Shown: in pieces, positions 2,002-61,986 of the stretch
Layout: each line of letters begins with the position of its first letter
Numbering within the stretch: the stretch's first letter is position 1
DNA from: Acidobacteriota bacterium
Lineage (GTDB): Bacteria; Acidobacteriota; Terriglobia; Bryobacterales; Bryobacteraceae
Reading direction: 5' to 3'
Assembly (NCBI GenBank): GCA_014584705.1
Contig: JACTMJ010000002.1
Span: 74,914-138,913, forward strand
Length of the DNA: 64,000 nt
Notes under the pieces: generated by a model
Told to the model about the DNA's origin: nothing
What the model saw: the letters and a program-made list of their open reading frames with translations, nothing else
Database searches by the model: none
Program-made: the position numbers and the translations under genes

Positions 2002-3048
2002 ATGAACTATCCCGAGAAGATTGGCGATATCGCCGAACTCGAAGACGCACTTTCGCAACCGTCCGAACGTGATATCGCGGCAATGGCCGCGCTCGATGGC
2101 GATGTGATGCTGCTGGGCGCGGGCGGCAAGATGGGTCCGTCACTGGCGCGGTTGGTGAAAAGGGCGTCGGTAGCCGCCGGGGTGAAGCGCCGGGTGATTG
2201 CGGTGGCGCGGTTTTCCGACCAGACATTGCTCTCGCAATTCGCGGCCCACGATATTGAAACGCTACCGGCCGACCTGCTGAAAAGCGAGGATCTGGCCCG
2301 ATTGCCCGACGTTCCCAATGTCATCTACATGGCGGCGAAGAAGTTCGGCACCAGCAGCGGCGAAATGACGGAAGCCGCCGCAACGTGGGCGATGAACGCC
2401 TACCTGCCGGGCCGGGTGGCGGAGCGCTTCGCGAAGTCGCGGATCGTGAGTTTTTCCACCGGGAACGTCTATCCGTTTACCGCGGCGGCCAGCGGCGGAG
2501 CAACGGAGAACACCCCGATGGAGCCCGTGGGAGAATATGGGCTTTCCGCTCTGGCGAGAGAGCGCATCTTCACCCACTTCTCACATCAGTACGGGACGCC
2601 GATGGCGATTCTGCGGCTGAACTATGCGATCGACCTTCGCTATGGGGTGCTCACGGATCTTGGCCGGAAGGTGCTTGCCGGGGCACCCGTGGACGTGACG
2701 ATGGGAGCCGTGAACGTGATCTGGCAGCGGGACGCGAATGCGGCGTGCCTGGGTTCGTTCGCGCACTGCGCGACGCCGCCCGACGTGTTGAATTTGACGG
2801 GTCCGGAGACGCTCTCCGTGCGCTGGCTGGCGACCGAATTAGGCAACCGGCTGGGCAAGAATCCCGTGCTCACGGGCGAAGAGCAGGCGACGGCGCTATT
2901 GAGCAACGCGACACGCTGCCAGAACCGCTTCGGCTATCCGACCGTGCCGGTGGCGAAGTTGCTTGACTGGGTGGCGGACTGGCTGCTGGCGGGCGGGGAG
3001 ACCTGGGATAAACCGACGAAGTTTCAGGTACGGGATGGAAAATTCTAA
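2002..3048 (+). CDS. NAD-dependent epimerase/dehydratase (SDR) family protein
   Basis: GGAG lies 6 nt upstream of ATG 2002; a longer GTG start at 1990 is possible. Rossmann motif LLGAGGKMGPSLARLV. Family-level call only. Confidence 0.75.
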   Translation: MNYPEKIGDIAELEDALSQPSERDIAAMAALDGDVMLLGAGGKMGPSLARLVKRASVAAGVKRRVIAVARFSDQTLLSQFAAHDIETLPADLLKSEDLARLPDVPNVIYMAAKKFGTSSGEMTEAAATWAMNAYLPGRVAERFAKSRIVSFSTGNVYPFTAAASGGATENTPMEPVGEYGLSALARERIFTHFSHQYGTPMAILRLNYAIDLRYGVLTDLGRKVLAGAPVDVTMGAVNVIWQRDANAACLGSFAHCATPPDVLNLTGPETLSVRWLATELGNRLGKNPVLTGEEQATALLSNATRCQNRFGYPTVPVAKLLDWVADWLLAGGETWDKPTKFQVRDGKF

Positions 3049-4073
3049 TGGACTTGCGGAAACGACTTTTCGAGGGAGTGGCGATCCCCGCGCATCCTCT
3101 GGCATTGAACGCGCAGCGGAAGCTGGACGAGCGGCGGCAAGCCGCGTTGACGCGGTATTACGTAGACGCGGGAGCGGGCGGAGTAGCTGTGGGCGTGCAT
3201 ACGACGCAATTCGCCATACGCGAGCCCAGGTTCGGTTTGTTTGAACCGGTGCTAAAGCTGGCCGCGGTCGCGCTGGGAGACCGGCCGGTGATTCGCGTGG
3301 CGGGAATTTGCGGGAAGACCGGGCAGGCTCTGCGGGAAGCCAAATTCGCAGCCGATTGGGGCTATCATGCCGGCCTGCTGAGCCTGAGCGCCTTTCGGGA
3401 CGACTCCGTGGAAGCGATGCTGGACCATGCGAGGGCGGTGGCCGAGGTCCTGCCGGTGTTCGGGTTCTATCTCCAACCCGCCGTTGGCGGGCGTGTGTTG
3501 CCGTATGCTTTCTGGCGGAAGTTTGCGGAAATCGAGAATGTCGTGGCAATCAAGATGGCTCCGTTCAACCGCTATCAGACGCTGGATGTGATCCGGGCGG
3601 TGGCGGATGCGGGAAGGACTGATTCGATTGCGCTCTACACGGGCAACGATGATCAGATCCTGGGCGATTTGCTGACGGCGTTTCCCGCGGGTGGGCAGAC
3701 GGTGCGAATCAGCGGTGGATTGCTGGGGCACTGGTCCGTGTGGACCAGCGCGGCCGTGAAACATTTGGAACTGGCAAAGCAGATTCATGCCAACGGAGGT
3801 GGCATCTCCAAGGAAATCCTGACGCTGGCGGCGGAGATCACCGATTCCAACGCCGCGCTGTTTGATGCGGCGAATGGGTTCCATGGGTGCATCGCCGGCT
3901 TGCATGAGATTCTTCGGCGGCAGGGATTGCTCGAAGGGCGCTGGTGTCTGGATGAGCATGAAGATCTCTCGCCGGGGCAGATGGAAGAGATTGATCGTGT
4001 CTGCCGCCAGTATCCGCATTTGACGGACGACCAGTTCGTGGAAGAAAACTTGCATCGCTGGCTGAATGCATGA
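3048..4073 (+). CDS. dihydrodipicolinate synthase / class I aldolase (DapA-like) family protein
   Basis: TAATG stop/start overlap with the upstream gene. 341-aa ORF with a DapA/NAL-family-like N-terminal region (GVAIPAHPLAL...VGVHTTQF). Substrate unknown. Confidence 0.65.
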   Translation: MDLRKRLFEGVAIPAHPLALNAQRKLDERRQAALTRYYVDAGAGGVAVGVHTTQFAIREPRFGLFEPVLKLAAVALGDRPVIRVAGICGKTGQALREAKFAADWGYHAGLLSLSAFRDDSVEAMLDHARAVAEVLPVFGFYLQPAVGGRVLPYAFWRKFAEIENVVAIKMAPFNRYQTLDVIRAVADAGRTDSIALYTGNDDQILGDLLTAFPAGGQTVRISGGLLGHWSVWTSAAVKHLELAKQIHANGGGISKEILTLAAEITDSNAALFDAANGFHGCIAGLHEILRRQGLLEGRWCLDEHEDLSPGQMEEIDRVCRQYPHLTDDQFVEENLHRWLNA

Positions 4074-4148
4074 GCGCGGTACGCCGCGAGAGAACACCCA
4101 AGGCGGCCGATTGCCGCTACAAGGCGACGAATGGCGAGGGGGAGCGTG

Positions 4149-5066
4149 ATGCGGACCTTATTCCAATCGACTGCTTTCTTGTTGCTGCTGACGGGATTAA
4201 TGACAGCCCAGCGCGCGTCGCCCACCAAGAGCGAGCTGTGCATCTATGATCTGCGCGCTGGCGCCAGCCGCTGCATACTCTCCACAAGCCGGCATATCGA
4301 GGCCCCGAACTGGACGCCCGACGGGAAGTATCTGCTGGTGAACAGCGGCGGGCTGCTCTTTGAGGTTGCCCTTGCGGCGCCGGAACTGAAGCAAATCCCC
4401 ACGGGAAACGTGACGCGGCTCAATAACGACCACGGCGTCTCACCGGACGGCGAGGTTCTGGTAATCTCGGCGGGCCACATGTACAGCCTTCCCAGGTCGG
4501 GAGGCACTCCAAGGCAAATTACCGCCAGGACGCCCAGCTACTACCACGGCTGGTCACCGGATGGACGGATGCTCGCCTACTGCGCACAGCGCGAGAACAA
4601 CTTCGACATCTATGTGATTCCATTGGAAGGCGGCGACGAGGTCAGGGTGACAGCGGCAGCTTCCCATGATGACGGCCCTGATTACTCGCCGGATGGAAAG
4701 TGGATTTATTTCAACTCGGACCGGGGCGGGGAAACAAGTATCTGGCGGGTGCCTGCCGGGAAGGCGACGCCGCAGGACGCGAGTGCGGAATTGGTGGTGG
4801 GGGGAGATCGCGCGGATTGGTTTCCGCATCCCTCCCCCGACGGCAAGGGAATGGTGTACCTGAGTTATCCCGAAGGGACGAAGGGGCACCCGGCCAACCA
4901 GCCGGTGGAACTGCGCTGGATTCGCCTGGATGCAAACACCCCGGACGCACGCAGGCCCCGGATTCTGGAATCGTTAACCGGGGGCCAGGGCACGATCAAC
5001 GTCAACTCGTGGTCTCCGGATAGCCGGGCGTTTGCGTATGTGCGCTATGCGTATCCGGCCCGGTAG
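4149..5066 (+). CDS. TolB-like WD40-type beta-propeller repeat protein, exported
   Basis: GGGGGAG precedes ATG 4149 (alternative ATG at 4131). Signal peptide MRTLFQSTAFLLLLTGLMTAQ. Repeated (S/T)PDG blades: TPDGKYLLV, SPDGEVLV, SPDGRMLAY, SPDGKWIYF, SPDGKGMVY, SPDSRAFAY. Confidence 0.8.
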   Translation: MRTLFQSTAFLLLLTGLMTAQRASPTKSELCIYDLRAGASRCILSTSRHIEAPNWTPDGKYLLVNSGGLLFEVALAAPELKQIPTGNVTRLNNDHGVSPDGEVLVISAGHMYSLPRSGGTPRQITARTPSYYHGWSPDGRMLAYCAQRENNFDIYVIPLEGGDEVRVTAAASHDDGPDYSPDGKWIYFNSDRGGETSIWRVPAGKATPQDASAELVVGGDRADWFPHPSPDGKGMVYLSYPEGTKGHPANQPVELRWIRLDANTPDARRPRILESLTGGQGTINVNSWSPDSRAFAYVRYAYPAR

Positions 5067-5104: not shown

Positions 5105-5581
5105 TCAGGCCACACGCCGGCCACGCTTCGCCGCGGGCTTTGGTGCATTCCTCTCGAGGTGGCCGATGAGGCGCACTTCACTCAGTGCGATGGCAAGTTC
5201 CGCGGCTACCTGTTCTTCGCTGTGCCCTTCCTTGAGCAATCGGACGGCTTCCACCCGGCGATTGATATTCAATCCGGAGGACGCGGGCTTCTGAGGCACA
5301 CAGACCGCGGCGTAGGATTCCACATCCTCAAAACGGCTTTGCAATTCCTCCACTCCGGTGCGTACCTCGGCAAGGGCGATGTCGCTCTCCGACAGCCGCC
5401 GCCTGGCGTCGCTCGCGTTCCGTTCCATTGACTCCTGGGAGACGCGGAGGAGGCATATCGATTCGGCGAGCTCCTCCAGCCGCTGGCGGGATCGCCGGAT
5501 GGAACGCCAACCCAAATGGGCGGAGGTAATCGCGATGGCTGTGGCCGCGAGGGCGAGTGCGAAACTGATTATTGAGAGCAT
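5105..5581 (-). CDS. DUF2802-like flagellar-locus protein (N-terminal TM, coiled coil, C-terminal HTH-like motif)
   Basis: AGGA-type RBS before ATG 5581. TM segment MLSIISFALALAATAIAI, then a heptad-like region. C-terminal RRVEAVRLLKEGHSEEQVAAELAIALSEVRLIGHL resembles the conserved DUF2802 tail found in flagellar/chemotaxis clusters. Confidence 0.6.
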   Translation of the reverse strand: MLSIISFALALAATAIAITSAHLGWRSIRRSRQRLEELAESICLLRVSQESMERNASDARRRLSESDIALAEVRTGVEELQSRFEDVESYAAVCVPQKPASSGLNINRRVEAVRLLKEGHSEEQVAAELAIALSEVRLIGHLERNAPKPAAKRGRRVA

Positions 5582-5611: not shown

Positions 5612-6481
5612 CTATGCGGAACCAAGGCTGACGATTTCCTGGATGCGGACACCGTAATTGCCTTCGGTAACAACGACTTCGCCCCGACCGATGACACGAT
5701 CGTTGACGATGATCTCAACCGGGTCGTGGATACTGCGGTCCAGCTCCACAATCGAACCGGTGGACAATTTGAGCACATCCTGGAGCGCGACCTTTGCTTT
5801 GCCGAAGCTGATTCGGATGGGCAGTTCGAGATCCAACACGCGGCTGAGGTCGTCATCGCCCGTAGCGCCCGCAGTTCCCGAAGCGCGAGAGGCGCCTGAA
5901 GCGATGGGCGCCCGCACAGGGTTGTTCGGTGAAGCATCCGGTGCGGATTCGGACTTCGGACCGTCTTCTTCCTCTTGGGCGTGCCGTTCGAGGATCGACA
6001 GAAGGGATTCCGATACGCCGAAGCACAGAGGAGCAAGCGTTTGATCTTCGAACTGCAACTGGTAGCAAACCTCGAAGGCGGCGGGCGAATCGGCTCCGCA
6101 CACGACGGCTTCAAGGAGGGCGATATCGGCCGCCAGAGCACGGCCGAGAAACTGGGCCACCGCGGACAGCGCGCTTTGCAACACTTCCGTATAGCTGCCG
6201 GACACGTCTTCGTCCGTGAAATCATCGAGCCCCGCCGCGCTGAGGACGCGGGCGCCAATCGCCCTGCCGATAATCTCCGGGGCGGCTGTGTAGAGTTGCG
6301 AACCGGGCTGTGTATCCAGCGGATGCGCGCGCCATTCGCACTCAACGCCGGAAGGCGGAGGCGCTTCGGCCACTTCTACTTGCGCCCCGCAAAGCATTTC
6401 GAGCGATGCAGCCAGACGCGTGCGGAACTCGGCCGCGATCGCTTGAGGGGTCAAAGAACCGGTCGTGGATCGGGTTGTCAT
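5612..6481 (-). CDS. flagellar switch protein of the FliY/FliN family (divergent N-terminal 200 aa plus C-terminal SpoA domain)
   Basis: ATGA overlap with the fliA stop. The C-terminus (ISFGKAKVALQDVLKLSTGSIVELDRSIHDPVEIIVNDRVIGRGEVVVTEGNYGVRIQEIV) is a typical FliN/SpoA domain. I saw no canonical FliM N-terminal CheY-binding motif or CheC active-site motif. Confidence 0.7.
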   Translation of the reverse strand: MTTRSTTGSLTPQAIAAEFRTRLAASLEMLCGAQVEVAEAPPPSGVECEWRAHPLDTQPGSQLYTAAPEIIGRAIGARVLSAAGLDDFTDEDVSGSYTEVLQSALSAVAQFLGRALAADIALLEAVVCGADSPAAFEVCYQLQFEDQTLAPLCFGVSESLLSILERHAQEEEDGPKSESAPDASPNNPVRAPIASGASRASGTAGATGDDDLSRVLDLELPIRISFGKAKVALQDVLKLSTGSIVELDRSIHDPVEIIVNDRVIGRGEVVVTEGNYGVRIQEIVSLGSA

Positions 6482-7239
6482 AGGCCACGCTCCATGGGCC
6501 AGCTGCGCCGCATCGAGGTTCTGAGACGAAGGATCGCCTGGGTCTTCAATTGCGAGATCCTCGATTCGTGCAGGTGGACGATCCGGGCAATCTCACGCAG
6601 AGTGAGTTCTTCCTGAAAATAGAAATCCAGGATGGCGCTTTCGATCGGCGGCAATCGCCGGATGGCTTCCGCGAGCAGACGCTCAAGCTCGCGCCGCTCG
6701 TAGAGTTGATTGGGCAGTTCCGCGTCTTCGTCGGCGAGATAGGAGATCAGCTCGCGCCCATCTTCTTCGTTCGCCGCATATTCCAGACTCCCGAGCGTGA
6801 GGCCCTGGGTGTCGACGAGGTACTGATGATACACGTCCAGGGTTACTCCCATTTCCTCGGCGATCTGCTCGTCGTTGGGCGTCGCTTGCAATTCCTGTTC
6901 CACCCGGGCAATGGCGGATTCGATCTGTTTGGCGAGGCGGCGGCGCTGGCGAGGCGCCCAGTCGAGATCCCGCAGACTGTCGAGGATCGCGCCGCGGATC
7001 TTGTACTCGGCGTAGGTCTTGAGCTTGACATTGTGCGTGGGATCGAAACAGTCGATCGCGGAGATCAAGCCCAGAACTCCGGCCGATACCAGGTCGTCGA
7101 GGCTGATACTGTCGGGAAGGCGTTCGAAGATTTTGCGCGCGATCAGCCGCACCTGGGGCATATGCTCCAGGATGAGCGCTTCCCTGGTGACGCTTTCGCT
7201 TGGCGGGCTTGAATGGGGACGGGCGACAGCGGATCTCAC
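6478..7239 (-). CDS. fliA: RNA polymerase sigma-28 factor FliA
   Basis: AAGGAG followed by 7 nt then GTG at 7239; the longest ORF starts with TTG at 7257. Sigma-70 regions 2-4 are recognisable (KTYAEYKIRGAILD, LTLREIARIVHLHESRISQLKTQAILRLR). Sits in the flagellar operon. Confidence 0.93.
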   Translation of the reverse strand: MRSAVARPHSSPPSESVTREALILEHMPQVRLIARKIFERLPDSISLDDLVSAGVLGLISAIDCFDPTHNVKLKTYAEYKIRGAILDSLRDLDWAPRQRRRLAKQIESAIARVEQELQATPNDEQIAEEMGVTLDVYHQYLVDTQGLTLGSLEYAANEEDGRELISYLADEDAELPNQLYERRELERLLAEAIRRLPPIESAILDFYFQEELTLREIARIVHLHESRISQLKTQAILRLRTSMRRSWPMERGL

Positions 7240-7265
7240 GCGGCAACTCCTTGACAATTTCGAGA

Positions 7266-7295
7266 CCGTACGGATTTTCCGAAGGCCGTACGGAT
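7266..7295 (-). promoter_or_regulatory. two copies of CCGTACGGAT (palindromic core CCGTACGG) spaced 20 nt, in the flhF-fliA gap
   Basis: Copies at 7266-7275 and 7286-7295. The cores could also pair as an 8-bp stem with a 12-nt loop just upstream of the fliA RBS. Confidence 0.5.
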
Positions 7296-7329
7296 GCCGT
7301 TATGCGTTCCCGGACTCGGGAGCCGGGCT

Positions 7330-11298: not shown

Positions 11299-11450
11299 TG
11301 GAGTCTCCTTCCTTCAGCGACCCTCCATTGAGGATCGCCCGGCTCTACGCCCCGCGGGAGCCGGCCTGGCCATGCACTTTGCATCCAGGCGGAATGATCG
11401 GCCGAACGGCTTCGCGCCATTAGGCATCCCGCGAGATTCTCGTCCCGGCG

Positions 11451-16963: not shown

Positions 16964-17371
16964 CTAGGCCGCGGAGTCCGCCGTGGATTCGGCGGGTGGA
17001 TTGCTCTTGCCGATCGACTCCAGCTCCTGCCGGATGGAGATCAGTTGTTCCAGCTCGCTGAACTGAGCAAGTTGCGATAGAAACTCCGTCCCGTCGGCCG
17101 GGTTCAACGGATTCTGGTTCTTGATCTGGGCGACGAGCAGGGTCAGAAACGTCTGCTTGTTCGCCAATGCGCCCGCTCCGGAAACGGCGCTCTCGCCGGA
17201 GGCACCCTCCGCGCCGGCCGATTCCCCCGTGCTGCCGGTGTTGGTCCGATCCGCACCGGTTCGATTCGCGTTCGTCCGCTGTGCGGCGTGGACGCCCGAC
17301 CCGGTGTTCCGGGTCTCTCCGGCCGAGGAAGCCGCATCGGACATATAGCGGCTGAGTGGTTGTATCATCAT
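16964..17371 (-). CDS. flgD: flagellar hook assembly/capping protein FlgD (short form, 135 aa)
   Basis: AGGGAGGAA immediately upstream of ATG 17371. Conserved FlgD N-domain KQTFLTLLVAQIKNQNPLNPADGTEFLSQLAQFSELEQ. No Tudor/Ig-like C-terminal domain is encoded before flgE. Confidence 0.85.
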   Translation of the reverse strand: MMIQPLSRYMSDAASSAGETRNTGSGVHAAQRTNANRTGADRTNTGSTGESAGAEGASGESAVSGAGALANKQTFLTLLVAQIKNQNPLNPADGTEFLSQLAQFSELEQLISIRQELESIGKSNPPAESTADSAA

Positions 17372-17393
17372 TTCCTCCCTTGGTCTCCTGATC

Positions 17394-20048
17394 TCAACTG
17401 TTCCCGCGCCCCGAGCCCCGAACCGCACCGCGGGCGTCGTCCCGAAACGCTTCGGCGCGCCCCGCGATCGCCCCGTCGAGGGTCCCGGCAAAGGACGAAG
17501 CACCCCCGCGCGGAGACAAGATCCGCGCGGAGAAGGCCCGCCGATTCTGTTCATCACCGCCCTGTTCCGGCGACCGGCCTCCCGCGAATCCTTCGCCGCC
17601 CGATTGCCCGGGCGACCCGCCTCCCTGCCGGTGGGAAGGAGCGTCGCGCCACTCGCCGTGATCCGTCGACCTCTGGCCGGAGCTTGGACTCCCGGCATCG
17701 AAGCCCGATCGCTCGAGCCGGTGGAGCAATGATGGAATCTCCGCGCGCATCTCGCGCACGAAGCGCTCCGATTGGGATTCGATGCGCACTTCAATATCGG
17801 CTCCCGCACTTCCGGCGGCCCGGTTGCCGCGCTGCAGGAAGCGGAGCCGGACATCCTCGCCTCCGCCCGCCCCCGGCAGATCCACGCGAAGCGACCGGGC
17901 CGCGGGAAGGTCCTTGCCGGCGGCGGGGCCGGGCTGCGGCGGCAACTCAGCCAGGAGCGCTTCGGCAACCTTCGGCAACGTGCCGCCGGACGGAGATTGG
18001 CCGGTAGCGGCGCCGGTTCGGATCGAGCCGTGGGCCGTGCCCCCCGCGCCCGGGTGCCCTGCGGAACCTGCATGGTTCGGGGACGCGGCCACGAGCGATG
18101 CCGGATGAAGCTCCGGATGGGCAGCCATCCCGGCCGCGCCCGCGCGGAAGGGCTTCCGCGGCCACGGCGAGGTTTCCCCGGAATCGCCGGGAGCGCTCTC
18201 TTCCGGGTGCGATGCGGCCGCGGTACCGGACGAAGCGGCGTCAGGAATCGTCATCCGCCTTGCGGCTCCCTGACCGAACCTCACCCCTCCGGCGGATCCG
18301 CTCCCGGACCCGAACCGGGGCGCGGCGAGTACGGCCGATCCCGGAATCGGAAAGTTCGTCTCCACCCCCGCTCGCGCCGGAAGCCGGACGTTGGCGTCGT
18401 TTTCCCCGGCGGCAGGCGAGGCCTCGGATAGAGGGGCCTGCCCGGTTTGTGCAAGGGTTTTCTGTTCAAGAGTGCGGGCGGCGTCCCGCGAGCCCGGAAC
18501 GGCGTGGGTTGCGATGGCTGCCCCCGGCGCCGCCGCGTCGTTAGATTCAGCGGGAATCCCCATGGCGAGCGGTCTTGCGGTGGGCGGGAAAGCGACGGAA
18601 TCGCCGGCCCGCGCGTTCGCCCACCGGGATCCCGCGAGAACCGCCGCTCCATCCGCCGCGTCGCGCATCGCGCCGTCCATCGCGCCGTCCATTGCGCCGT
18701 CCATTGCGCCGCCCATTGCGCCATCCATCGTGTCGCCCGCCGCGCCTCCGCCGCCGAGCCCCGCGTTTTCTCCAGCGGAGGCTACAATCCGGTCAACCGT
18801 AACGCGAATCGTCGGCGGTGCGGACGAGGTCCCGGAGCCAGAGCGGCCGAGATCCTCGGCGAATGCTCCGCGCCCGAAAGCCGCGGTGGCGACATCCGAG
18901 CCCGCCAGGACCGGTTCCGGAGAACCTCCCCGGCCTGCGCGTCCCGCGATACCCGGCGTCGCCTCCGTTCCAATCCGCGTCCACGGCCCGGGAGCGCCCG
19001 GTCCGGACGCGGAACTCAGGTGCGGATCCGCGGTTTGCGGATTCATGCCGCCCCGGGGGGGCGGAACTGCCTCGCCTAGCGCCGCGATGGCTTGGCCGGG
19101 AGAACCCGCGGCGGGAATCGAATGGCCGGCGACGGCCGCGGGCGCGCCCGTCGCCGCTGAATCTCTTACCGGCGCGCCGGAAGCGACCAGCGCATCGGAG
19201 TTCTCCTGGTCGCCGGGCTCCCAAGCCCGCGGGTTTTCTTCCGTTTCCTCCACGAAACCGCCGCCGCCAGCGAACCGGATTGGCCCCTCATCGGGGTTAC
19301 CCGCGGAAGTCGCACCTCCTTGGGTTGTGCGTTCTTGTGCCGGACGAGAGGCGTCCGCCGCAGCCGCGCGGGCATCGCGAGAGGCGTCGGATGCCGGTTG
19401 CGAATCTGAATTCCGGCGAGAGGCGTCCGCCATCTCCGCCCGGGCTGGCCACAATGCGGAACGGTGCGCCGGAGCACCCGATTCGAGGCGCGCCGGTGCA
19501 TTACCGCGAACCAGCGCGCGCGCGCCGACAGAGTTCGCTCGCGGACGCGAATCGGCTAAGCCCGTGCGCTGACGCTCGTTGGCTAAGCCCGTGCGCTGAC
19601 GCTCGTCGGCTAGGCCCGTGCGCTGACGCTCGTCGGCTAGGCCCGTGCGCGAACGCTCGTCGGCTAGGCCCGTGCGCGAACGCTCGTCGGCTAGGCCCGT
19701 GCGCGAACGCGCAACGCCCTCCATCCGGTTTCCCGCGTTTTGCCGCCGGTCCTCGTTCGCCTCACCCAATCTGGAGGACGGCTCGAACCGGGAGTGGCGC
19801 ACCGGATCCTCCGTTGTCTTCCCCGGCGGAGGCAAAGGCACCCGGTCCGCAAACTGCCGGGGTGTCGCGGCCGCTACATCGATGCGAGTCTCCATCCACA
19901 TCGCCAGATAGCCGCCAAACTCGGCGACACCGCGAGCCGATTCTTCCTCCCTGGGCGCTCGTCCGGCTTGCGCGGATGCGCTTGCACGGCTGGAGGATGA
20001 GAGCGAGGCCGCGGAATTCGCGGAGGACCGAATCGATGCAGGAGTCAC
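17394..20048 (-). CDS. fliK: FliK-like flagellar hook-length control protein (884 aa, Ala/Gly/Pro/Arg-rich, internal tandem repeats)
   Basis: GGGAG followed by 7 nt then GTG 20048. Sits directly upstream of flgD-flgE. The C-terminal region (LRVDLPGAGGGEDVRLRFLQRGN...IEVRIESQSERFVREMRAEIPSLLHRLERSGFDAG) resembles the FliK Flg_hook/T3S4 domain. The rest is low complexity. Confidence 0.7.
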   Translation of the reverse strand: MTPASIRSSANSAASLSSSSRASASAQAGRAPREEESARGVAEFGGYLAMWMETRIDVAAATPRQFADRVPLPPPGKTTEDPVRHSRFEPSSRLGEANEDRRQNAGNRMEGVARSRTGLADERSRTGLADERSRTGLADERQRTGLADERQRTGLANERQRTGLADSRPRANSVGARALVRGNAPARLESGAPAHRSALWPARAEMADASRRNSDSQPASDASRDARAAAADASRPAQERTTQGGATSAGNPDEGPIRFAGGGGFVEETEENPRAWEPGDQENSDALVASGAPVRDSAATGAPAAVAGHSIPAAGSPGQAIAALGEAVPPPRGGMNPQTADPHLSSASGPGAPGPWTRIGTEATPGIAGRAGRGGSPEPVLAGSDVATAAFGRGAFAEDLGRSGSGTSSAPPTIRVTVDRIVASAGENAGLGGGGAAGDTMDGAMGGAMDGAMDGAMDGAMRDAADGAAVLAGSRWANARAGDSVAFPPTARPLAMGIPAESNDAAAPGAAIATHAVPGSRDAARTLEQKTLAQTGQAPLSEASPAAGENDANVRLPARAGVETNFPIPGSAVLAAPRFGSGSGSAGGVRFGQGAARRMTIPDAASSGTAAASHPEESAPGDSGETSPWPRKPFRAGAAGMAAHPELHPASLVAASPNHAGSAGHPGAGGTAHGSIRTGAATGQSPSGGTLPKVAEALLAELPPQPGPAAGKDLPAARSLRVDLPGAGGGEDVRLRFLQRGNRAAGSAGADIEVRIESQSERFVREMRAEIPSLLHRLERSGFDAGSPSSGQRSTDHGEWRDAPSHRQGGGSPGQSGGEGFAGGRSPEQGGDEQNRRAFSARILSPRGGASSFAGTLDGAIAGRAEAFRDDARGAVRGSGRGNS
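18669..18728 (-). repeat. five tandem 12-nt coding repeats inside the fliK-like gene (GAMD tetrapeptide)
   Basis: [c/t]gcgcc[g/a][t/c]ccat repeated five times, encoding GAMGGAMDGAMDGAMDGAM. Confidence 0.9.
19554..19715 (-). repeat. six tandem 27-nt coding repeats inside the fliK-like gene (9-aa unit RTGLADER[S/Q])
   Basis: Units start at 19554, 19581, 19608, 19635, 19662 and 19689. Neighbouring units differ by 0-3 nt. Confidence 0.95.
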
Positions 20049-25344: not shown

Positions 25345-25371
25345 TAAAGAAGTTCCGGGGACCGCCGATAC
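25345..25371 (+). promoter_or_regulatory. sigma-28 (FliA) promoter upstream of flgM
   Basis: TAAA (25345-48), a 15-nt spacer, then GCCGATAC (25364-71). Lies in the 60-nt flgJ-flgM gap, 25 nt before the flgM ATG. Confidence 0.75.
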
Positions 25372-55740: not shown

Positions 55741-56595
55741 CTATGCCGCTCTGGGAGCGGCGAACACAGAGACTTTTTCCAGGATCTCCTGCTTAAGCGC
55801 GTTTGGGTTGGTGTCGATACGGCGGCGAGCGGGTTGCGGCAGCATATCCACCAGGTCTTCAAACGAGTAGGTATCGGATTCAGGGGTAACGGAGAAGCCA
55901 ATCAGGTTCGTAATTCGGTTCGTGATCCGCAGCAGGTTTCCCAACTCCCGGTCGCCCGGTTCCGGAGCCTCGTGATGGGTTTGGGCAACGAAACGGACTT
56001 CCGGAGGCAGGCTCCATTCCGCGGCCAGCCATGCTCCGGCCATGCAGTGGTCGATATCGAAAATGTCGAGTTCCGCCTGGATCAGCGGCAGCCCTTCCTC
56101 GGCGGCGACGTCGAGCAAGCGCGCATACTCTTGCGGATAAGCGGTCATCATCCCCAAGCGGCCCACATCATGCAGCAATCCCGCCATGTACGCCCGTTCC
56201 GCCGGAATCCCGCAACCGCGGGCGACGTTTTCGGTGAGCACCGCGCACGCCAGGCAGTGGATCCAGCAATCGAGCAGCCGCTGATAGCGGAGCGCGGATT
56301 TGATCTGTGCGTTCAAGGCCACCATCATCACCAGAGCTTTCACCCGCTCGAGGCCAACAATCGAGATGGCGTGGGCAATGTCGCTGACCTGCTGGGAGAA
56401 GCCAAACAGCGAAGAGTTTGCCAGTCGCAGGAGTTCAAAGGAGAAAGTGGGATCAATCCGAATGACGTCGGAAAGCTGTGCATTGGAAACATTCGGATCC
56501 TGCAACAGGCCCAGCAGGCGGTTGGCCACCGGCGGAAACGGCGGCAGTTGCCGCAGTGCCCAAGGGTATTTCGGAATCGAATTCAACTTTTCCAT
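55741..56595 (-). CDS. stand-alone HDOD-domain protein
   Basis: LPPFPPVANRLLGLLQDPNVSNAQLSDVIRIDPTFSFELLRLANSSLFG...ISIVGLERVKALV...GLLHDVGRL is a typical HDOD domain. No other domain was recognised. Confidence 0.88.
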   Translation of the reverse strand: MEKLNSIPKYPWALRQLPPFPPVANRLLGLLQDPNVSNAQLSDVIRIDPTFSFELLRLANSSLFGFSQQVSDIAHAISIVGLERVKALVMMVALNAQIKSALRYQRLLDCWIHCLACAVLTENVARGCGIPAERAYMAGLLHDVGRLGMMTAYPQEYARLLDVAAEEGLPLIQAELDIFDIDHCMAGAWLAAEWSLPPEVRFVAQTHHEAPEPGDRELGNLLRITNRITNLIGFSVTPESDTYSFEDLVDMLPQPARRRIDTNPNALKQEILEKVSVFAAPRAA

Positions 56596-56715
56596 AGCTT
56601 CTTTCCTGTCCGCTGCCCGCTCGTTTTCCCGTCAGTGCGTCCCGCTCGTTCTTCCCGCCTCTTCGTCGCTGGTTCGCATGGTGCATGGCCGCGCGATACC
56701 ATCGCCTCATTGGTT

Positions 56716-56742
56716 TTATCGGCTCCTCCGGCGAAAGGTTTA
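56716..56742 (-). promoter_or_regulatory. sigma-28 (FliA) promoter upstream of the HDOD gene
   Basis: The minus strand reads TAAA-cctttcgccggagga-GCCGATAA, an exact consensus with a 15-nt spacer. The -10 element ends about 120 nt upstream of ATG 56595. Confidence 0.75.
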
Positions 56743-56960
56743 TGAAGTTTCCCGAAATTCTCGAAGACTTTTCTTTCCGGGGGTATGGACGTAATGCGGT
56801 GTCGGCCCCTCCCGCATCGGAGACCGGGCGACGGCGCTTCCACTCGTGAGAACATAGGGGTTTGAGGAAAGGCGCTCGCTAGATTCTTGTCATCATTTTC
56901 GCCACTTCCCGTGAGAGCGACGCCGTTTCCCGATTCCCCGATGTCAGGAGCAACACGTCC

Positions 56961-58370
56961 ATGAGCGACCAGAAGCTGAGCAGTGAACAAGAGTTTCGCA
57001 TCGAAAAGGACTCGATGGGAGAGGTGCGCGTGCCCGCCGCGGCGCTCTACGCCGCCCAAACCCAGCGCGCGCTGGAGAATTTCCCCGTGAGCGGCATCCC
57101 CTTCCCCCGCCCGTTCATCCGCGCGCTGGGGTTGGTGAAAGGAACGGCCGCGGAGGTAAACCGCTCCCTGGGCCTCCTCGATCCGGCCGTAGCGAGCGCC
57201 GTCGCCGCCGCCGCCGCCGAGGTGGAGGCCGGGGAACACGACTCCCAGTTCCCGCTGGACATCTTCCAGACTGGCTCCGGCACGTCCACGAACATGAACA
57301 CCAATGAGGTGATTGCGACGCTGGCCACGCGGAAGCTAGGCAGCAAGGTCCATCCCAACGATCACGTGAATTGCAGCCAGAGCTCCAACGACGTGATCCC
57401 CACGGCCATGCACGTCAGCGCTCTGACGGAGACGGCGGAGAAGCTCATCCCGGCCCTGGAGCACATCGCGGGTGTGATTGACCGAAAGGCGGCCGAAGTG
57501 GACCACGTCGTTACCACCGGGCGCACCCATCTGATGGACGCCATGCCAATCCGCCTTAGCCAGGAACTGGGCGGCTGGAGCGGGCAAGTCAAGGACTGCA
57601 TCGCACGCCTGAAGGCCACTTACCCCCGCATCGGAGCGCTCGCGCTGGGCGGAACCGCGATCGGAACGGGGATCAACGCGCACCCCGAGTTCGGCGGGAA
57701 GGTAGCCGAGGCCCTCGCCGCCAAGACCGGGTTGCCCTTCGTAACCAGTTCCAACTACTTCGTGAGCCTTTCGAGCCTGGACGCGGTCGCGGAGCTTAGC
57801 GGCCAGTTGAAGACATACGCGGTTGCGCTGATGAAGATTGCGAACGACCTCCGCTGGATGAACAGCGGGCCCGTCCACGGCATCGCGGAAATCGCGCTGC
57901 CTTCGTTGCAGCCGGGCTCCAGCATCATGCCGGCGAAGGTGAATCCGGTGGTGCCGGAATCCGCCGCAATGGTCTGCGCGCAGGTCATCGGCAATGACGC
58001 AACCATCACGATCGCGGCGCAGAGCGGCAACTTTCAGCTCAATGTGATGCTGCCCGTGGCCGCCTACAACCTGCTGCAGAGCATCCACATTCTGGCTACC
58101 GCCAGCCGGATGCTCGCGGACAAGGCCATCGCCGGCTTCACCGTGAATGAAGCCAAAATTGCTTCGCTCGTGGAGATGAACCCCATCCTTGTGACTGCCC
58201 TCAATCCGATCATCGGCTATGAGAAAGGTGCGGCCGTGGCGAAGCTGGCTGCCAAGGAAGGCCGGAGGGTGAAGGATGTGGCTGCCGAGCAGACGGACCT
58301 CTCGCCGGAACATCTCGCGGAAATTCTCGACCCCCGCAAGCTGACCGAAGGCGGCGTGGCGGACGCCTGA
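56961..58370 (+). CDS. fumC: class II fumarate hydratase
   Basis: FRIEKDSMGEVRVPAAALYAAQTQRA, and GSSIMPAKVNP, a variant of the GSSxMPxKxN signature. 469 aa. Confidence 0.97.
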   Translation: MSDQKLSSEQEFRIEKDSMGEVRVPAAALYAAQTQRALENFPVSGIPFPRPFIRALGLVKGTAAEVNRSLGLLDPAVASAVAAAAAEVEAGEHDSQFPLDIFQTGSGTSTNMNTNEVIATLATRKLGSKVHPNDHVNCSQSSNDVIPTAMHVSALTETAEKLIPALEHIAGVIDRKAAEVDHVVTTGRTHLMDAMPIRLSQELGGWSGQVKDCIARLKATYPRIGALALGGTAIGTGINAHPEFGGKVAEALAAKTGLPFVTSSNYFVSLSSLDAVAELSGQLKTYAVALMKIANDLRWMNSGPVHGIAEIALPSLQPGSSIMPAKVNPVVPESAAMVCAQVIGNDATITIAAQSGNFQLNVMLPVAAYNLLQSIHILATASRMLADKAIAGFTVNEAKIASLVEMNPILVTALNPIIGYEKGAAVAKLAAKEGRRVKDVAAEQTDLSPEHLAEILDPRKLTEGGVADA

Positions 58371-58490: not shown

Positions 58491-59051
58491 CTAGCCCTCG
58501 CGCGCGAACTCCTGCACGGAACTGTGTTTTTCCGCGTCGCGGTAGAGCGGATCGTCGTCATCGGCGGGCGATGTGCTATAGCTTTCGAGCGAAGCCAACG
58601 CTTGCAGGGTGCGCCGCATGCTGCCCTGATCCTCTTCGTCGCGGGTGTCTTCCCGCTCTTCGAGCGCGCGAGCCTGCTCTGGATCGAGTATCCCCAGAAT
58701 TTCGTCCGCATACTTGCGGGAATAGTACATCACCATCCCGATGCTGCACCCCTCGTAGGCAACGGCGGCCAGTACCGCGCGGTTCCCCACCGCTACCACG
58801 CTCACCCAGCCCTCGAAGCCCTTGAAGCAGACTTCCTGCAATGCACCGCAGCCGCCTACTTCGGCCACCCGCCGTCCAATGCCCAGGGAAGATGCGCTCA
58901 GCGCGGCCAGGGCCTCCGCCTGATCGTTAAGATTCCGGTGCGTCACCGCTACGCCGTCCGCCGTAGCCAGCAAACAGCCACGAATGCCGCGTGTGGAGGA
59001 AGCGAGCTCCTCCAATGGGATTTCGATTTGTCGCAGGGTTTGCTGGTCCAT
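58491..59051 (-). CDS. Roadblock/LC7 (MglB-like) domain protein with acidic C-terminal extension
   Basis: GIRGCLLATADGVAVTH...SLGIGRRVAEV...GWVSVVAVGNRAVLAAVA matches the Roadblock/LC7 fold pattern. Lies 15 nt downstream of the GTPase gene. Confidence 0.8.
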   Translation of the reverse strand: MDQQTLRQIEIPLEELASSTRGIRGCLLATADGVAVTHRNLNDQAEALAALSASSLGIGRRVAEVGGCGALQEVCFKGFEGWVSVVAVGNRAVLAAVAYEGCSIGMVMYYSRKYADEILGILDPEQARALEEREDTRDEEDQGSMRRTLQALASLESYSTSPADDDDPLYRDAEKHSSVQEFAREG

Positions 59052-59066
59052 GGCAGAATTGTACTC

Positions 59067-59621
59067 CTAAACGAGGCTAAATGATCCTTCAGATCTCAAA
59101 GAGTTCGATTTCGGTGCCACGTACTCAAAGAGGATCCGCAGCGTTTCAAGAGCGCTCTCCCGGCTCCTTGCATCCACATTTACAACACAATCCGGAGGAA
59201 CCCCAAGATAAATCCCTACTTCTTCAGGCGGCCATTCTTCACTGAGATCGGTGCGCGTAAGTCCTATGACGGTTGGTACGTCGATGAATTTCTGGAGGAA
59301 CTTCAAGGTCTTCTTTGCTTCGACAAAGCAGGCCGGGCGGTCTGCCGCCACCAGCAGAACGAGGGCGTGCGCGCCATTGCATGTGACCTCCCAGAGGAAA
59401 TCGAAGCGCTCCTGGCCGGGCACACCGAAAAGCAGAATCCGGACATCGTCCACGTCCATCGTCCCGAAATCGATGCCGACCGTGGTTCCCACCTTCCCGA
59501 TGTCTTCGCTGGCGAGAACATCGGTGTCCACAAATGGCGTATCGGACAGTGTGCGAACAAATGTGGATTTTCCGGAGCCAACCGGCCCTGCAACGAGGAT
59601 TTTCGCGACGTATTCCTGCAT
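59067..59621 (-). CDS. small Ras-like GTPase of the MglA/CvnD (COG2229) type
   Basis: GGGGAG followed by 5 nt then ATG 59621. P-loop GPVGSGKST. G3 is FGVPGQERF, with no Asp as in MglA/CvnD. The G4-like motif is TRTD instead of NKxD. Confidence 0.8.
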   Translation of the reverse strand: MQEYVAKILVAGPVGSGKSTFVRTLSDTPFVDTDVLASEDIGKVGTTVGIDFGTMDVDDVRILLFGVPGQERFDFLWEVTCNGAHALVLLVAADRPACFVEAKKTLKFLQKFIDVPTVIGLTRTDLSEEWPPEEVGIYLGVPPDCVVNVDARSRESALETLRILFEYVAPKSNSLRSEGSFSLV

Positions 59622-59810
59622 TCCGACTCCCCTGAACTCGTTAGCCCGCGTCCGCCTACGAACACTTCGCATCGGATACAACGCCGTGATCACGATGGGG
59701 CTTGCGACAATTCCACTTTCCCCGAGATTGCCGGGGAAAGGTAGGCGAAGATAAAAGAAAGCCATTCCAGCACAACACCAAACCGGTAGGCCTTTGGTTT
59801 ATCCCGGCGG

Positions 59811-59839
59811 TGTAAGTGATTATACAAGAATCACTTACA
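59811..59839. repeat. 11-bp perfect inverted repeat with a 7-nt spacer in an AT-rich gap
   Basis: tgtaagtgatt-atacaag-aatcacttaca, followed by the 8-bp palindrome tagtacta (59845-52). Lies about 190 nt upstream of the GTPase ATG. Confidence 0.9.
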
Positions 59840-59974
59840 TAAGCTAGTACTATATGGTTAATTTTGACAATCCTGACCGGGTTTAGGCCGGGAAAGCGGT
59901 TCGTCCGCTGCCGAAATGGCTGAAATTGGGGCGGAGACGGGGAATCGGATGAGCAAGCACCGCCGGCTGAGCGC

Positions 59975-60988
59975 CTACGTGAGGCAGACCACGCTCGGGA
60001 GCGCGCCGGACGCCCGTTTATCGAGGGCATCCCTCTCCGCATCCACCATGATCCTGACGAGATCCCGGAACGAAGTACGGGGCTCCCATCCAAGCAGTCG
60101 GCGCGCTTTGGAGGCATCCGCTTGCAGCGCGTCCACTTCCGACGGGCGAAAATATCGCGGATCAATGACGACATAGTCGCGCCAGTCCAGGTTCACGAGT
60201 GCGAAGCACTCTTCCACAAATTCCTGAACCGAGTGGGTCTCACCGGTGCCAATCACAAAGTCGCCCGGCTCAGATTGCTGCGCCATCAGCCACATTGCTT
60301 CCACGTATTCCGGCGCGTATCCCCAGTCACGCTTTGCGTCGAGGTTCCCGAGGAAGAGTTTTTCCTGCAAACCCCGCGCGATGTGTGCCGCGGCCCGTGC
60401 AATCTTGCGGGTAACGAAGGTTTCCCCGCGCCGGGGAGATTCGTGATTGAAAAGAATCCCGCTTGAAGCGTGCATCCCGTAACCTTCGCGGTAGTTCACC
60501 GTGATGGAGTGTGCGAAGAGCTTCGCGCATGCGTAAGGGCTGCGCGGGTGGAACACCGCCCGCTCATCCTGGGGCGGAGAGGTCGCGCCGAACATCTCGC
60601 TCGAACTTGCCTGGTAGTAGCGGGCCTTCACCCCCGTGCCGCGCATCGCTTCCAGAAGCCGAAGGGCGCCCGTCGCCGTGATATCGGCTGTGTACTCGGG
60701 GATGTCAAAACTCACTCGAACGTGGCTCTGCGCCGCCAGGTTGTAAACCTCATCGGGGCGAATGTCGTAGAGCAATTTCCAAAGACTGCTGGCGTCGCTC
60801 AAGTCCGCGAAGTGCAGGTAGAAATTCGGCTTCTCGTGGGGATCTTCGTAGATCGGGTCCACCCGTTCCGTATTGAAGCTGGACGAGCGCCGCTTGATGC
60901 CATGCACTTCGTAACCCTTCGCCAGCAGGAACTCGGCGAGATAGCTGCCGTCCTGCCCGGTAACCCCCGTAATTAGCGCTCGACGCAT
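59975..60988 (-). CDS. gmd: GDP-mannose 4,6-dehydratase
   Basis: [41 protein letters not shown]..., YACAKL, and the full 337-aa Gmd pattern. Confidence 0.96.
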
Positions 60989-61069
60989 CGGCCCGGCTCC
61001 CCCTTTGAGCGTGCGTGCCGGGGCAAACCGTTGGGAACGTAGCCCTGCGAACGCCCGCTCTGTACGGGT

Positions 61070-61096
61070 ATATCGGCGTTGGAACGCAGATCTTTA
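61070..61096 (-). promoter_or_regulatory. sigma-28 (FliA) promoter upstream of gmd
   Basis: The minus strand reads TAAA-gatctgcgttccaac-GCCGATAT (15-nt spacer). Lies in the 125-nt gap between the upstream gene stop (61114) and the gmd ATG (60988). Confidence 0.7.
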
Positions 61097-61113: not shown

Positions 61114-61800
61114 TTAAGGCGTGGGCGTGCGATCCGCCCTTCCGCGCCGGAGATCCGGCAGGAACTCATTCACGGCATTCCCGCCCATCCTGCCAAGGAA
61201 TCCGTAGAGCACCCGCAGGAGAGCGTCCCCCGCGGAAGACTGGCTTCCCACCCGCCATGCGTTCTGCATGAAGTTGCTTGATGGAATGGCAATGAAGCGC
61301 GAATAGGCAGGCATCCGTTCCCCACGCGCATTGGTGGCCGTGACGCTGGAGAGCAAGACGTGCCCGATGCGCCCCTTGAGGTCGCCGCGAAGCGTGCCGC
61401 CCTTGCGATAATAGCGGGGATCTTCCCCCCAGATCCCGCCGAGGCCGGCTTCCATTCCGTTGCTAATGGCAAGGCCCGAAATAGCCAAACCATAGCGTTT
61501 CCCGAATCCGCCCCAGGTTTCCGGATACTCGTGCGGGGATCGCCAGGCAGTAGACCACGCGGCACTAAAGACCGAACTGCTTACGGCTGCCGTGCCGGTA
61601 CCGCGCAGATACCATTGCAGGCGGTCTTTGCCGGTAGCGGGAACATAATCGCGAACGGAGGTCGGCAACGGTATGACGGCGGGCGCTGCGGCGTCCGCAT
61701 TCGCCTCCTGGCCGGTGGCAGGAGTCTCAGCCGCCGCGAATTGGGGTATGATCGCAAGCAGACAACTGAGCACCAACCCCAGAACTCGGTCTCTGAGCAT
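61114..61800 (-). CDS. hypothetical exported protein
   Basis: GGGAGG followed by 7 nt then ATG 61800. Signal peptide MLRDRVLGLVLSCLLAIIPQFAAAE. No family recognised. Confidence 0.5.
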   Translation of the reverse strand: MLRDRVLGLVLSCLLAIIPQFAAAETPATGQEANADAAAPAVIPLPTSVRDYVPATGKDRLQWYLRGTGTAAVSSSVFSAAWSTAWRSPHEYPETWGGFGKRYGLAISGLAISNGMEAGLGGIWGEDPRYYRKGGTLRGDLKGRIGHVLLSSVTATNARGERMPAYSRFIAIPSSNFMQNAWRVGSQSSAGDALLRVLYGFLGRMGGNAVNEFLPDLRRGRADRTPTP

Positions 61801-61986
61801 CGAACCACCTCCCGATTTCAGCCAGCTTTCTGGATCCGGAACGCACCGCGCCCCACCGCGGGTGCAGCCCGCCGAAACATCCATGTGTTCTTCGGGTCAC
61901 GCCCTTACAGAATAGCCTTGTTTTCGCCGATATCCGCCGTTCCAACTCCGATCTGACGGCAACGCGATGAAATACTATAAGGAGGT

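Follow-up and report, generated by a model that had tools for sequence, protein, structure and literature searches.

A conserved sigma-28-type promoter motif suggests that a stand-alone HDOD gene of Bryobacterales is expressed with the late flagellar genes

HDOD is a common bacterial signaling output domain, and HDOD mutants of several species are motility-defective, with neither a mechanism nor a regulatory logic to account for the defect. Where, then, might such a protein stand in the regulatory program of a cell? The question is raised by a 64-kb stretch of DNA (hereafter, the window), analyzed here as part of a metagenome-assembled genome (MAG) of Bryobacterales (Acidobacteriota). It encodes a stand-alone HDOD protein of 284 amino acids (aa), and upstream of the gene, on the minus strand from 56742 to 56716, lies a motif of the type read by the flagellar sigma factor sigma-28 (FliA). 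Sequence analysis makes it highly probable that this motif is a functional sigma-28-dependent promoter, which would transcribe the HDOD gene as a monocistronic unit, and that the HDOD protein is made along with the products of late flagellar and chemotaxis genes.

Read on the minus strand, the motif is TAAAcctttcgccggaggaGCCGATAA, that is, TAAACCTTTCGCCGGAGGAGCCGATAA, and it agrees with the sigma-28 (FliA)-type promoter at 12 of 12 positions, the 15-nt spacer between TAAA and GCCGATAA being cctttcgccggagga. An exact match had been claimed at this site in a preliminary description of the same DNA, and our scan of both strands confirmed it: TAAA-N15-GCCGATAA occurs just once in the window and not at all in 100 dinucleotide-preserving shuffles. 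In E. coli the sigma-28 consensus is TAAAGTTT-N11-GCCGATAA, and SigD of B. subtilis recognizes TAAA-N15-GCCGATAT. Since both elements and their spacing fit this cross-phylum consensus, the motif can be tied to sigma-28, and the predicted promoter is an ordinary member of a well-known class. It has the two-block architecture and the TAAA-N15-GCCGATAA spacing of class III (FliA/sigma-28/SigD) promoters, and, as expected of that class, FliA and a probable FlgM are encoded nearby. The 365-nt divergent intergenic region holds the motif on the strand of the HDOD gene; from the end of the −10 element to the ATG (56595) the distance is 121 nt, and the predicted transcription start site is at about 56706–56711.

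When the search was relaxed to 11 positions (TAAA + GCCGATA), the window yielded three matches, all with a 15-nt spacer, where 0.02 would be expected by chance. These are the three sites that the preliminary description had listed as intergenic and correctly oriented, and so they proved: each lies in a short intergenic gap and has the orientation of the next gene. Only the HDOD site matches at all 12 positions, the other two reading GCCGATAC and GCCGATAT. The GC content of the window, estimated earlier at 60–65%, is 62.5%.

We then used an alignment of HDOD orthologs to scan genomes at one per GTDB species, which gave 80 loci, all of them from Bryobacterales or Terriglobia MAGs. An exact TAAA-N15-GCCGATAA is found upstream of all six close orthologs (72–96% identity), and the spacer differs from one to the next. 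In an alignment of the roughly 400-nt intergenic region from seven genomes (the window and these six), only TAAAC.TTT......G..GCCGATAAA is invariant ahead of the ATG; spacer, flanks and leader (82–207 nt long) have diverged or are unalignable. The extended conserved block of the HDOD promoter reads TAAAC.TTT...GCCGATAAA. The preliminary description had proposed such a comparison, naming a lack of conservation upstream of orthologs as an outcome that would speak against the promoter. This is clearly not what emerged, since the motif is the one block that does not vary across the seven genomes. The conservation of the putative promoter is a classical phylogenetic footprint.

The footprint extends, in looser form, to more distant HDOD genes (36–45% identity), most of which are preceded by cTAA(A/T)-N15/16-GCCGATA(A/G) or GTCGATAA, at a distance of 17–41 nt from the start codon and with a GGAG Shine-Dalgarno sequence behind it. 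The clade consensus tolerates TAAT and a 16-nt spacer, unlike the TAAA-N15 form of class III promoters. A match with at most two mismatches is present in 44 of the 79 HDOD upstream regions. The opposite strand of these regions has one in only 2 cases out of 79, and among 4620 control windows from the same loci there are 48 (1.0%). The −10 core G[CT]CGATA alone occurs 2.27 times per kb upstream of HDOD genes versus 0.136 times per kb elsewhere. Because the enrichment is strand-specific, it fits a promoter and not a palindromic operator. To limit phylogenetic pseudo-replication, the HDOD proteins were clustered at 50% identity into 13 clusters; the motif is found in nine of them, and those without it include L049, L057, L065, L069 and L070.

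The family also has paralogs, so that the orthology of the group at about 40% identity to the window gene is uncertain. Locus L081 (10001–11940, plus strand), which holds an 83% ortholog, has a second HDOD gene (286 aa) on the same strand, 225 nt downstream, and several MAGs contain two HDOD loci of the family (L006/L075, L018/L067 and L054/L061).

If the motif is read by sigma-28, similar sites should mark other targets of that factor. We trained a position weight matrix (PWM) only on HDOD sites from L007–L080, leaving out the window's own clade, and applied it to the window, where it found six matches of at least 17 bits against 0.4 expected. Three of them are the sites already described, at the HDOD gene, the probable flgM and the GDP-mannose 4,6-dehydratase gene gmd (Table 1). 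The other three, scoring 19.1–19.8 bits, are all sense-oriented inside minus-strand flagellar operons. The one in the flhB-flhA gap has the form TAAT-N16-GCCGATCA, as do the HDOD sites of L010 and L011. As it lies upstream of flhA-flhF-fliA, it could, together with the site in the 3′ part of flhA, provide positive autoregulation of fliA. In 724 kb of other Bryobacterales loci, only seven sites scored 18 bits or more apart from those upstream of HDOD genes, among them one before a gmd ortholog (L086) and one, GTAAAGatccgctacgagaTGCCGATAGA (21.7 bits), before a methyl-accepting chemotaxis protein (MCP) gene (L013; PF00015, E 9e-44). MCP genes are a canonical class of sigma-28 targets. The motif thus occurs at sigma-28 target types of this lineage: flgM, three flagellar-operon sites and one MCP gene. 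Together, the conservation, the enrichment and the matrix matches at flgM, the flagellar operons and the MCP gene support the earlier proposal that the HDOD gene belongs to the late flagellar regulon.

Table 1. Sigma-28-type sites and associated features of the window
Feature	Coordinates	Strand	Remarks
Predicted sigma-28 (FliA)-type promoter of the HDOD gene	56716..56742	minus	−35 TAAA 56742–56739; −10 GCCGATAA 56723–56716; PWM 21.4 bits
Predicted 5′ leader, ~110 nt	56596..56715	minus	purine-rich; ends in a GGAAAG Shine-Dalgarno-like stretch
Stand-alone HDOD protein gene, 284 aa	55741..56595	minus	predicted di-metal site H113, H142-D143, H183, H207-H208
Class-II fumarase/aspartase gene	56961–58370	plus	divergent neighbor sharing the intergenic region with HDOD
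Second sigma-28-type site, TAAAgaagttccggggaccGCCGATAC	25345..25371	plus	11-position match; PWM 21.5 bits; before probable flgM
Probable flgM (anti-sigma-28), 129 aa	25396..25785	plus	sub-threshold FlgM matches, homolog and synteny
Third sigma-28-type site, TAAAgatctgcgttccaacGCCGATAT	61070..61096	minus	before gmd; PWM 23.9 bits, highest in the window
11-position matches	25345–25370 (+); 56742–56717 (−); 61096–61071 (−)		both-strand scan of the window
fliA	6478..7257	minus	downstream of flhB-flhA-flhF; sigma-28 factor presumed to read the promoter
Sigma-28-like site, flhB-flhA gap, TAATggcgcgaagccgttcgGCCGATCA	11395..11422	minus	upstream of flhA-flhF-fliA; PWM 19.1 bits
Sigma-28-like site, 3′ part of flhA	9527–9501	minus	upstream of flhF-fliA; PWM 19.7 bits
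Sigma-28-like site, 5′ end of fliN	15460–15433	minus	PWM 19.8 bits
Flagellar cluster, minus-strand genes		minus	FliN/FliY-like gene, fliA, flhF, flhA, flhB, fliR, fliP, fliN, flgE, flgD
Flagellar cluster, plus-strand genes		plus	flgF, flgG, flgA, flgH, flgI, FlgJ-like rod-binding open reading frame (ORF), 129-aa ORF

At the three related loci L055, L059 and L073, the opposite strand carries a second sigma-28-like site (18–20 bits), which lies some 200 nt upstream of the HDOD start and faces away from the gene. Beyond it we observed an IS1595-family transposase gene in L055 and only short ORFs without matches in L059 and L073.

The sigma factor presumed to read these sites is encoded in the window itself, in a flagellar cluster that spans 5.1–25.8 kb. 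The identification of fliA made in the preliminary description holds, as its product scores above the curated cut-offs of both TIGR02479 FliA_WhiG (226 bits; cut-off 189.6) and NF005413 FliA (210.8 bits; cut-off 201). Flagellin, mot and che genes are absent from the 64 kb. The motif had also been said to precede flgM. The site is indeed present, at 25345, in a 60-nt gap, but the 129-aa ORF behind it is flgM only probably, because its matches to the FlgM families (Pfam, E 0.011; NCBIfam, E 0.009) stay below the family cut-offs. The assignment draws on a 48%-identical homolog, P0126, which has a recorded Pfam FlgM match, and on the common gene order flgH-flgI-orf-flgM; in the window, the ORF follows flgI and the FlgJ-like ORF. 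Upstream of flgM, four genomes with FlgM proteins of 48–72% identity share CCCTAAAGAA...CCGATAC without variation. This footprint is less specific than that of the HDOD gene, since the short flgM intergenic region is well conserved overall.

Some further features of the cluster may be noted. No flhG (MinD/ParA-like) gene lies between flhF and fliA (7258–7329), unlike in locus L090, described below. Downstream of fliA, a gene for a 289-aa FliN/FliY-like protein (5612–6481, minus strand) overlaps the fliA stop by 4 nt and is followed by a 158-aa ORF without a family match (5105–5581, minus strand). Upstream of flgE, in the region 16964–20048 (minus strand), the FlgD Pfam domain forms the C-terminal end of a 369-aa ORF (16964–18073), which is overlapped in another frame by an 884-aa ORF (17394–20048, minus strand) without a Pfam match. 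The region may encode a short FlgD behind a long FliK-like hook-length protein of low complexity, with tentative gene boundaries.

The third site had been described as a further intergenic, co-oriented match. That stands; the gene it precedes is gmd, which is not an obvious flagellar gene. The site lies between an ORF at 61114–61884 (minus strand) and gmd (59975–60988, minus strand; TIGR01472, 508 bits), which is followed on the same strand by genes for an MglA/Ras-like small GTPase (59067–59765) and a Roadblock/MglB-like protein (58491–59051). Both the site and the gene order are kept in a 93% relative (L086), where the motif, TAATggtttgtgtctgagcGCCGATAT at 5463–5489, has a diverged spacer. 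The region 58491–61096 (minus strand) may therefore be a FliA-controlled module combining sugar modification with a polarity GTPase.

What kind of protein would this promoter produce? HDOD had been reported as its only recognizable domain, and we came to the same result: PF08668 matches residues 17–209 with 179.2 bits (cut-off 22.9; E 8e-53), covering profile positions 1–195 of 196, and is the only substantial domain, besides a weak overlapping HD match. The protein also scores above the cut-off for the HDIG domain. An AlphaFold2 model built from the ortholog alignment is all-helical (pLDDT 87.4, pTM 0.84), and its top fold matches in the PDB are all HDOD proteins, namely 3HC1 (TM-score 0.71), 3M1T, 9QZK (SadB), 3MEM, MmoQ and, weakly, Cj0248. 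The best PDB match by sequence is again 3HC1 (E 2.6e-22), an HDOD protein of Geobacter sulfurreducens that binds two iron ions through five His residues and one Asp (PMC12075610). Residues H113, H142, D143, H183, H207 and H208 of the window protein align with identical residues of 3HC1, so that all six di-metal ligands are shared, and in the ortholog alignment A1 these positions are invariant or nearly so, except that D143 is either D or N. The two proteins are only 22% identical, and 3HC1 is a structural-genomics entry of unknown function.

Two other identities were considered for the protein and set aside. In place of the HHExxDGxGYP signature of HD-GYP proteins the sequence reads THHEAPEPGDRELG, with no GYP; the match to 4MCW is poor (E 0.24, TM-score 0.30) and no HD-GYP family matched. 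An architecture like that of SadB, or of response regulators combining a receiver domain (REC) with HDOD, is incompatible with an HDOD domain that starts at residue 17 of 284, and neither a YbaK-like nor a receiver domain was detected. With no GYP motif, no such additional domain and ligands aligned with those of 3HC1, the window protein is a stand-alone HDOD protein with an intact metal site of the 3HC1 type, in which metal binding is predicted.

Links between HDOD proteins and motility have been reported repeatedly. GsmR of Xanthomonas, Cj0248 of Campylobacter jejuni, SadB of Pseudomonas and PFL_0554 and PFL_5871 of P. protegens all belong here (PMC11004494), with SadB, GsmR and Cj0248 influencing flagellar motility or flagellar biosynthesis (PMC6543031, PMC11004494, PMC12075610). 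None is a close counterpart of the window protein. GsmR, like MmoQ, shares the HDOD fold with it but has a receiver domain that the window protein lacks, and Cj0248 (PDB 1VQR) has the same fold but matches only weakly (E 2.7e-7, TM-score 0.33). SadB, which has a YbaK-like N-terminal domain in front of HDOD, has lost three metal-binding His residues and acts as a proteolysis adaptor without needing the pocket (PMC12075610); the window protein, by contrast, has an intact pocket and no YbaK domain. The closest in architecture, though likened by architecture and not by sequence, is PSPTO_4229 of P. syringae DC3000, a protein of 273 aa (here ~280) consisting of HDOD only. Its deletion and its over-expression both reduce swimming, its function requires R84/R85, and its authors propose a chemotaxis or flagellar binding partner (PMC11813219). 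Since swimming suffers from both too little and too much of it, PSPTO_4229 appears to be a dosage-sensitive modulator of motility, which would fit tight co-regulation with flagella. The window protein has an R84 of its own, in GLERVKAL and at least 90% conserved in A1, although the likeness to R84/R85 is one of residue number only. The description of our protein as uncharacterized thus needs qualifying, since motility phenotypes of stand-alone HDOD proteins have been published in Pseudomonas and Campylobacter (PMC11813219, PMC11004494). The paper on PSPTO_4229 (PMC11813219) contains no occurrence of 'FliA' and no promoter or regulon information.

Control of small signaling genes by class III promoters has precedents, as the E. 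coli genes ycgR and pdeH (yhjH) illustrate. The same is true of the small signaling protein FlgZ in Pseudomonas (PMC3913639). As with YcgR, PdeH and FlgZ, the target proposed here is a small signaling protein and no structural part; unlike them, it is an HDOD rather than a PilZ or EAL protein, and its host is an acidobacterium. In our literature search, no HDOD gene was reported to be under sigma-28 control, nor was there anything on FliA promoters or a described flagellar regulon in Acidobacteria; most subscription journals were outside the search, and novelty is accordingly provisional. What appears to be new is the predicted conserved regulon membership of a stand-alone HDOD family across an acidobacterial order, a relationship not seen by gene neighborhood.

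The neighborhood of the window gene gives no hint of flagella: it is located 30 kb from the flagellar cluster, between the divergent class-II fumarase/aspartase gene and an aldo-keto reductase gene. Among the orthologs, the neighbors are fumarase and a second HDOD gene in L081, a hydrolase gene in L083 and genes for electron transfer flavoprotein (ETF) in L084, and synteny is not conserved beyond about 90% identity. As the motif stays while the neighboring genes change, the promoter would belong to the HDOD gene and not to its neighbors. Two loci depart from this pattern of unrelated neighbors. In L013, a 'Candidatus Acidiferrales bacterium' MAG (2375–4837, plus strand), the HDOD gene directly follows the MCP gene, the only chemotaxis neighbor among the 80 loci. 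In the more distant L090 (GCA_026394195.1; 152–6912, plus strand), a stand-alone HDOD homolog of 303 aa (33% identity) begins 43 nt after fliA, at the end of flhB-flhA-flhF-flhG-orf-fliA, and is followed by a PAS/GAF histidine kinase gene. Only a degenerate motif (…CAAAacctgtttccattccATCGATTA) precedes it, so that this HDOD gene is probably co-transcribed with fliA.

The predicted leader of the window gene neither matched an Rfam family nor folded better than shuffled controls (z +1.44). Control of this purine-rich, GGA-containing leader by CsrA was considered, because Cj0248 is enriched in CsrA co-immunoprecipitation (PMC4894983); it is unsupported, given a leader that is neither conserved nor structured and has no Rfam match. 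A scan for sigma-70-like promoters and intrinsic terminators around the HDOD gene found none, although, with an E. coli-type consensus, this is a weak negative. The fumarase-HDOD intergenic region contains a second conserved block at about 56837–56872, reading GCGCCTTTCCTCAAACCCCTATGTTCTCACGAGTGG on the minus strand. It is kept in five genomes of at least 90% identity and absent from the 72% orthologs, which lack the fumarase neighbor, and it may be a promoter or operator of the divergent fumarase gene.

Several observations weigh against assigning the HDOD gene to FliA and to flagella. A good motif is missing from about 44% of the upstream regions and from four of the 13 clusters. Because the loci are phylogenetically related, they represent fewer independent observations than the raw counts imply, and those counts cover HDOD loci irrespective of flagella in each genome. 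In the window the −10 element lies 121 nt from the ATG, versus the 17–41 nt seen in most other Bryobacterales HDOD genes. We dropped gene neighborhood as a link to flagella, since no flagellar gene lies within 4 kb in any of the 80 loci, and an MCP neighbor is found in just one; apart from L090, it is the promoter motif that carries the connection. Extension of the motif to the distant homologs L090–L092 was abandoned as well: degenerate in L090, it is missing in L091 and L092 (31–34% identity), which adjoin GGDEF or histidine-kinase genes and thus stand in non-flagellar signaling contexts. The top-scoring site of the window precedes gmd, which is no flagellar gene in the classical sense, so that the regulon may extend beyond flagella. 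Finally, the source organism is an uncultured MAG, and FliA-dependent transcription, its timing and the action of the protein are inferred from sequence.

How do other explanations fare against these data? The motif could be a chance match, or the promoter of the divergent fumarase gene or of an unannotated leader RNA, with no bearing on HDOD. The intergenic region is, after all, shared with the fumarase/aspartase gene, and the leader is long. Yet the number of matches expected by chance is zero, the motif faces away from the fumarase gene and is kept in orthologs that have no fumarase neighbor, the leader has none of the conservation, structure or Rfam membership of a functional RNA, and in most relatives the motif sits within 41 nt of the HDOD start codon. 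The enrichment over control windows and the seven-genome footprint essentially exclude this explanation. It is also very improbable that the motif is read by another factor, be it an alternative sigma factor of similar specificity or a regulator whose operator resembles a sigma-28 site. A single window of the genome is in view, FliA/WhiG or SigB/F-type paralogs may be encoded elsewhere, and in the clade consensus TAAA-N15 is often replaced by TAAT and a 16-nt spacer; against this, the elements and spacing fit the sigma-28 consensus across phyla, the same motif marks flgM, an MCP gene and flagellar operons, and its strand-specific enrichment is unlike that of a palindromic operator.

A more serious alternative, though still an unlikely one, accepts the FliA-dependent promoter but denies the HDOD protein a role in motility. 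In that case, sigma-28 regulons of this order would extend to non-flagellar 'planktonic lifestyle' genes, with HDOD as a general signaling or metabolic phosphohydrolase co-expressed with them. The position of the strongest window site before gmd and the small-GTPase/MglB-like pair would agree with this, as would the lack of flagellar genes beside any of the 80 Bryobacterales HDOD genes, and the intact di-metal site together with the above-cut-off HDIG match suggests an enzyme. However, motility phenotypes are on record for HDOD proteins from four or five unrelated species (PMC11813219, PMC11004494), the HDOD gene of L090 lies inside a flagellar cluster directly after fliA, and that of L013 directly follows an MCP gene.

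We therefore favor sigma-28 control of an HDOD protein that acts in motility, for which the following sequence of events can be proposed. Once the hook-basal body is complete, FlgM would be exported and FliA released. FliA-RNA polymerase would bind TAAA-N15-GCCGATAA and start transcription some 7 nt downstream, near 56708, so that the HDOD protein would be made together with late flagellar and chemotaxis proteins. This small, all-helical product, with its predicted binuclear metal pocket of the 3HC1 type, would most likely tune motor or chemotaxis output after assembly. It could do so at the metal site, with a small phosphorylated ligand being sensed or hydrolyzed there, or by binding a flagellar or chemotaxis partner in a dosage-sensitive way. 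A bolder version is also conceivable, although we hold it only tentatively and find it rather doubtful. In it, stand-alone HDOD proteins with a di-iron site would count throughout Bryobacterales as a conserved late, class III component of the flagellar system, and at least one other lineage would have them fused into the fliA operon. Tuning motor or chemotaxis output directly, they would serve as a metal-center sensor or phosphohydrolase whose input is redox state, O2/NO or a nucleotide second messenger. The finding would gain in interest if the HDOD protein were such a direct, metal-dependent modulator.

Because the HDOD protein would be made after completion of the hook-basal body, its partners would be expected among late-stage components, that is, motor, stator and chemotaxis proteins or late-stage nucleotide signals. 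For the Acidobacteriota, the sites described here offer a first partial sketch of a FliA regulon, comprising flgM, an MCP gene, HDOD, and gmd with the small GTPase pair, to which possible internal or autoregulatory sites in the flhA-flhF-fliA operon can be added. They also illustrate that promoter footprints can recover functional links missed by gene-neighborhood methods. If the bolder version above is true, it would provide the first defined physiological context for a widespread, mechanistically orphan domain, and would account for the motility phenotypes scattered among HDOD mutants of Pseudomonas, Xanthomonas and Campylobacter.

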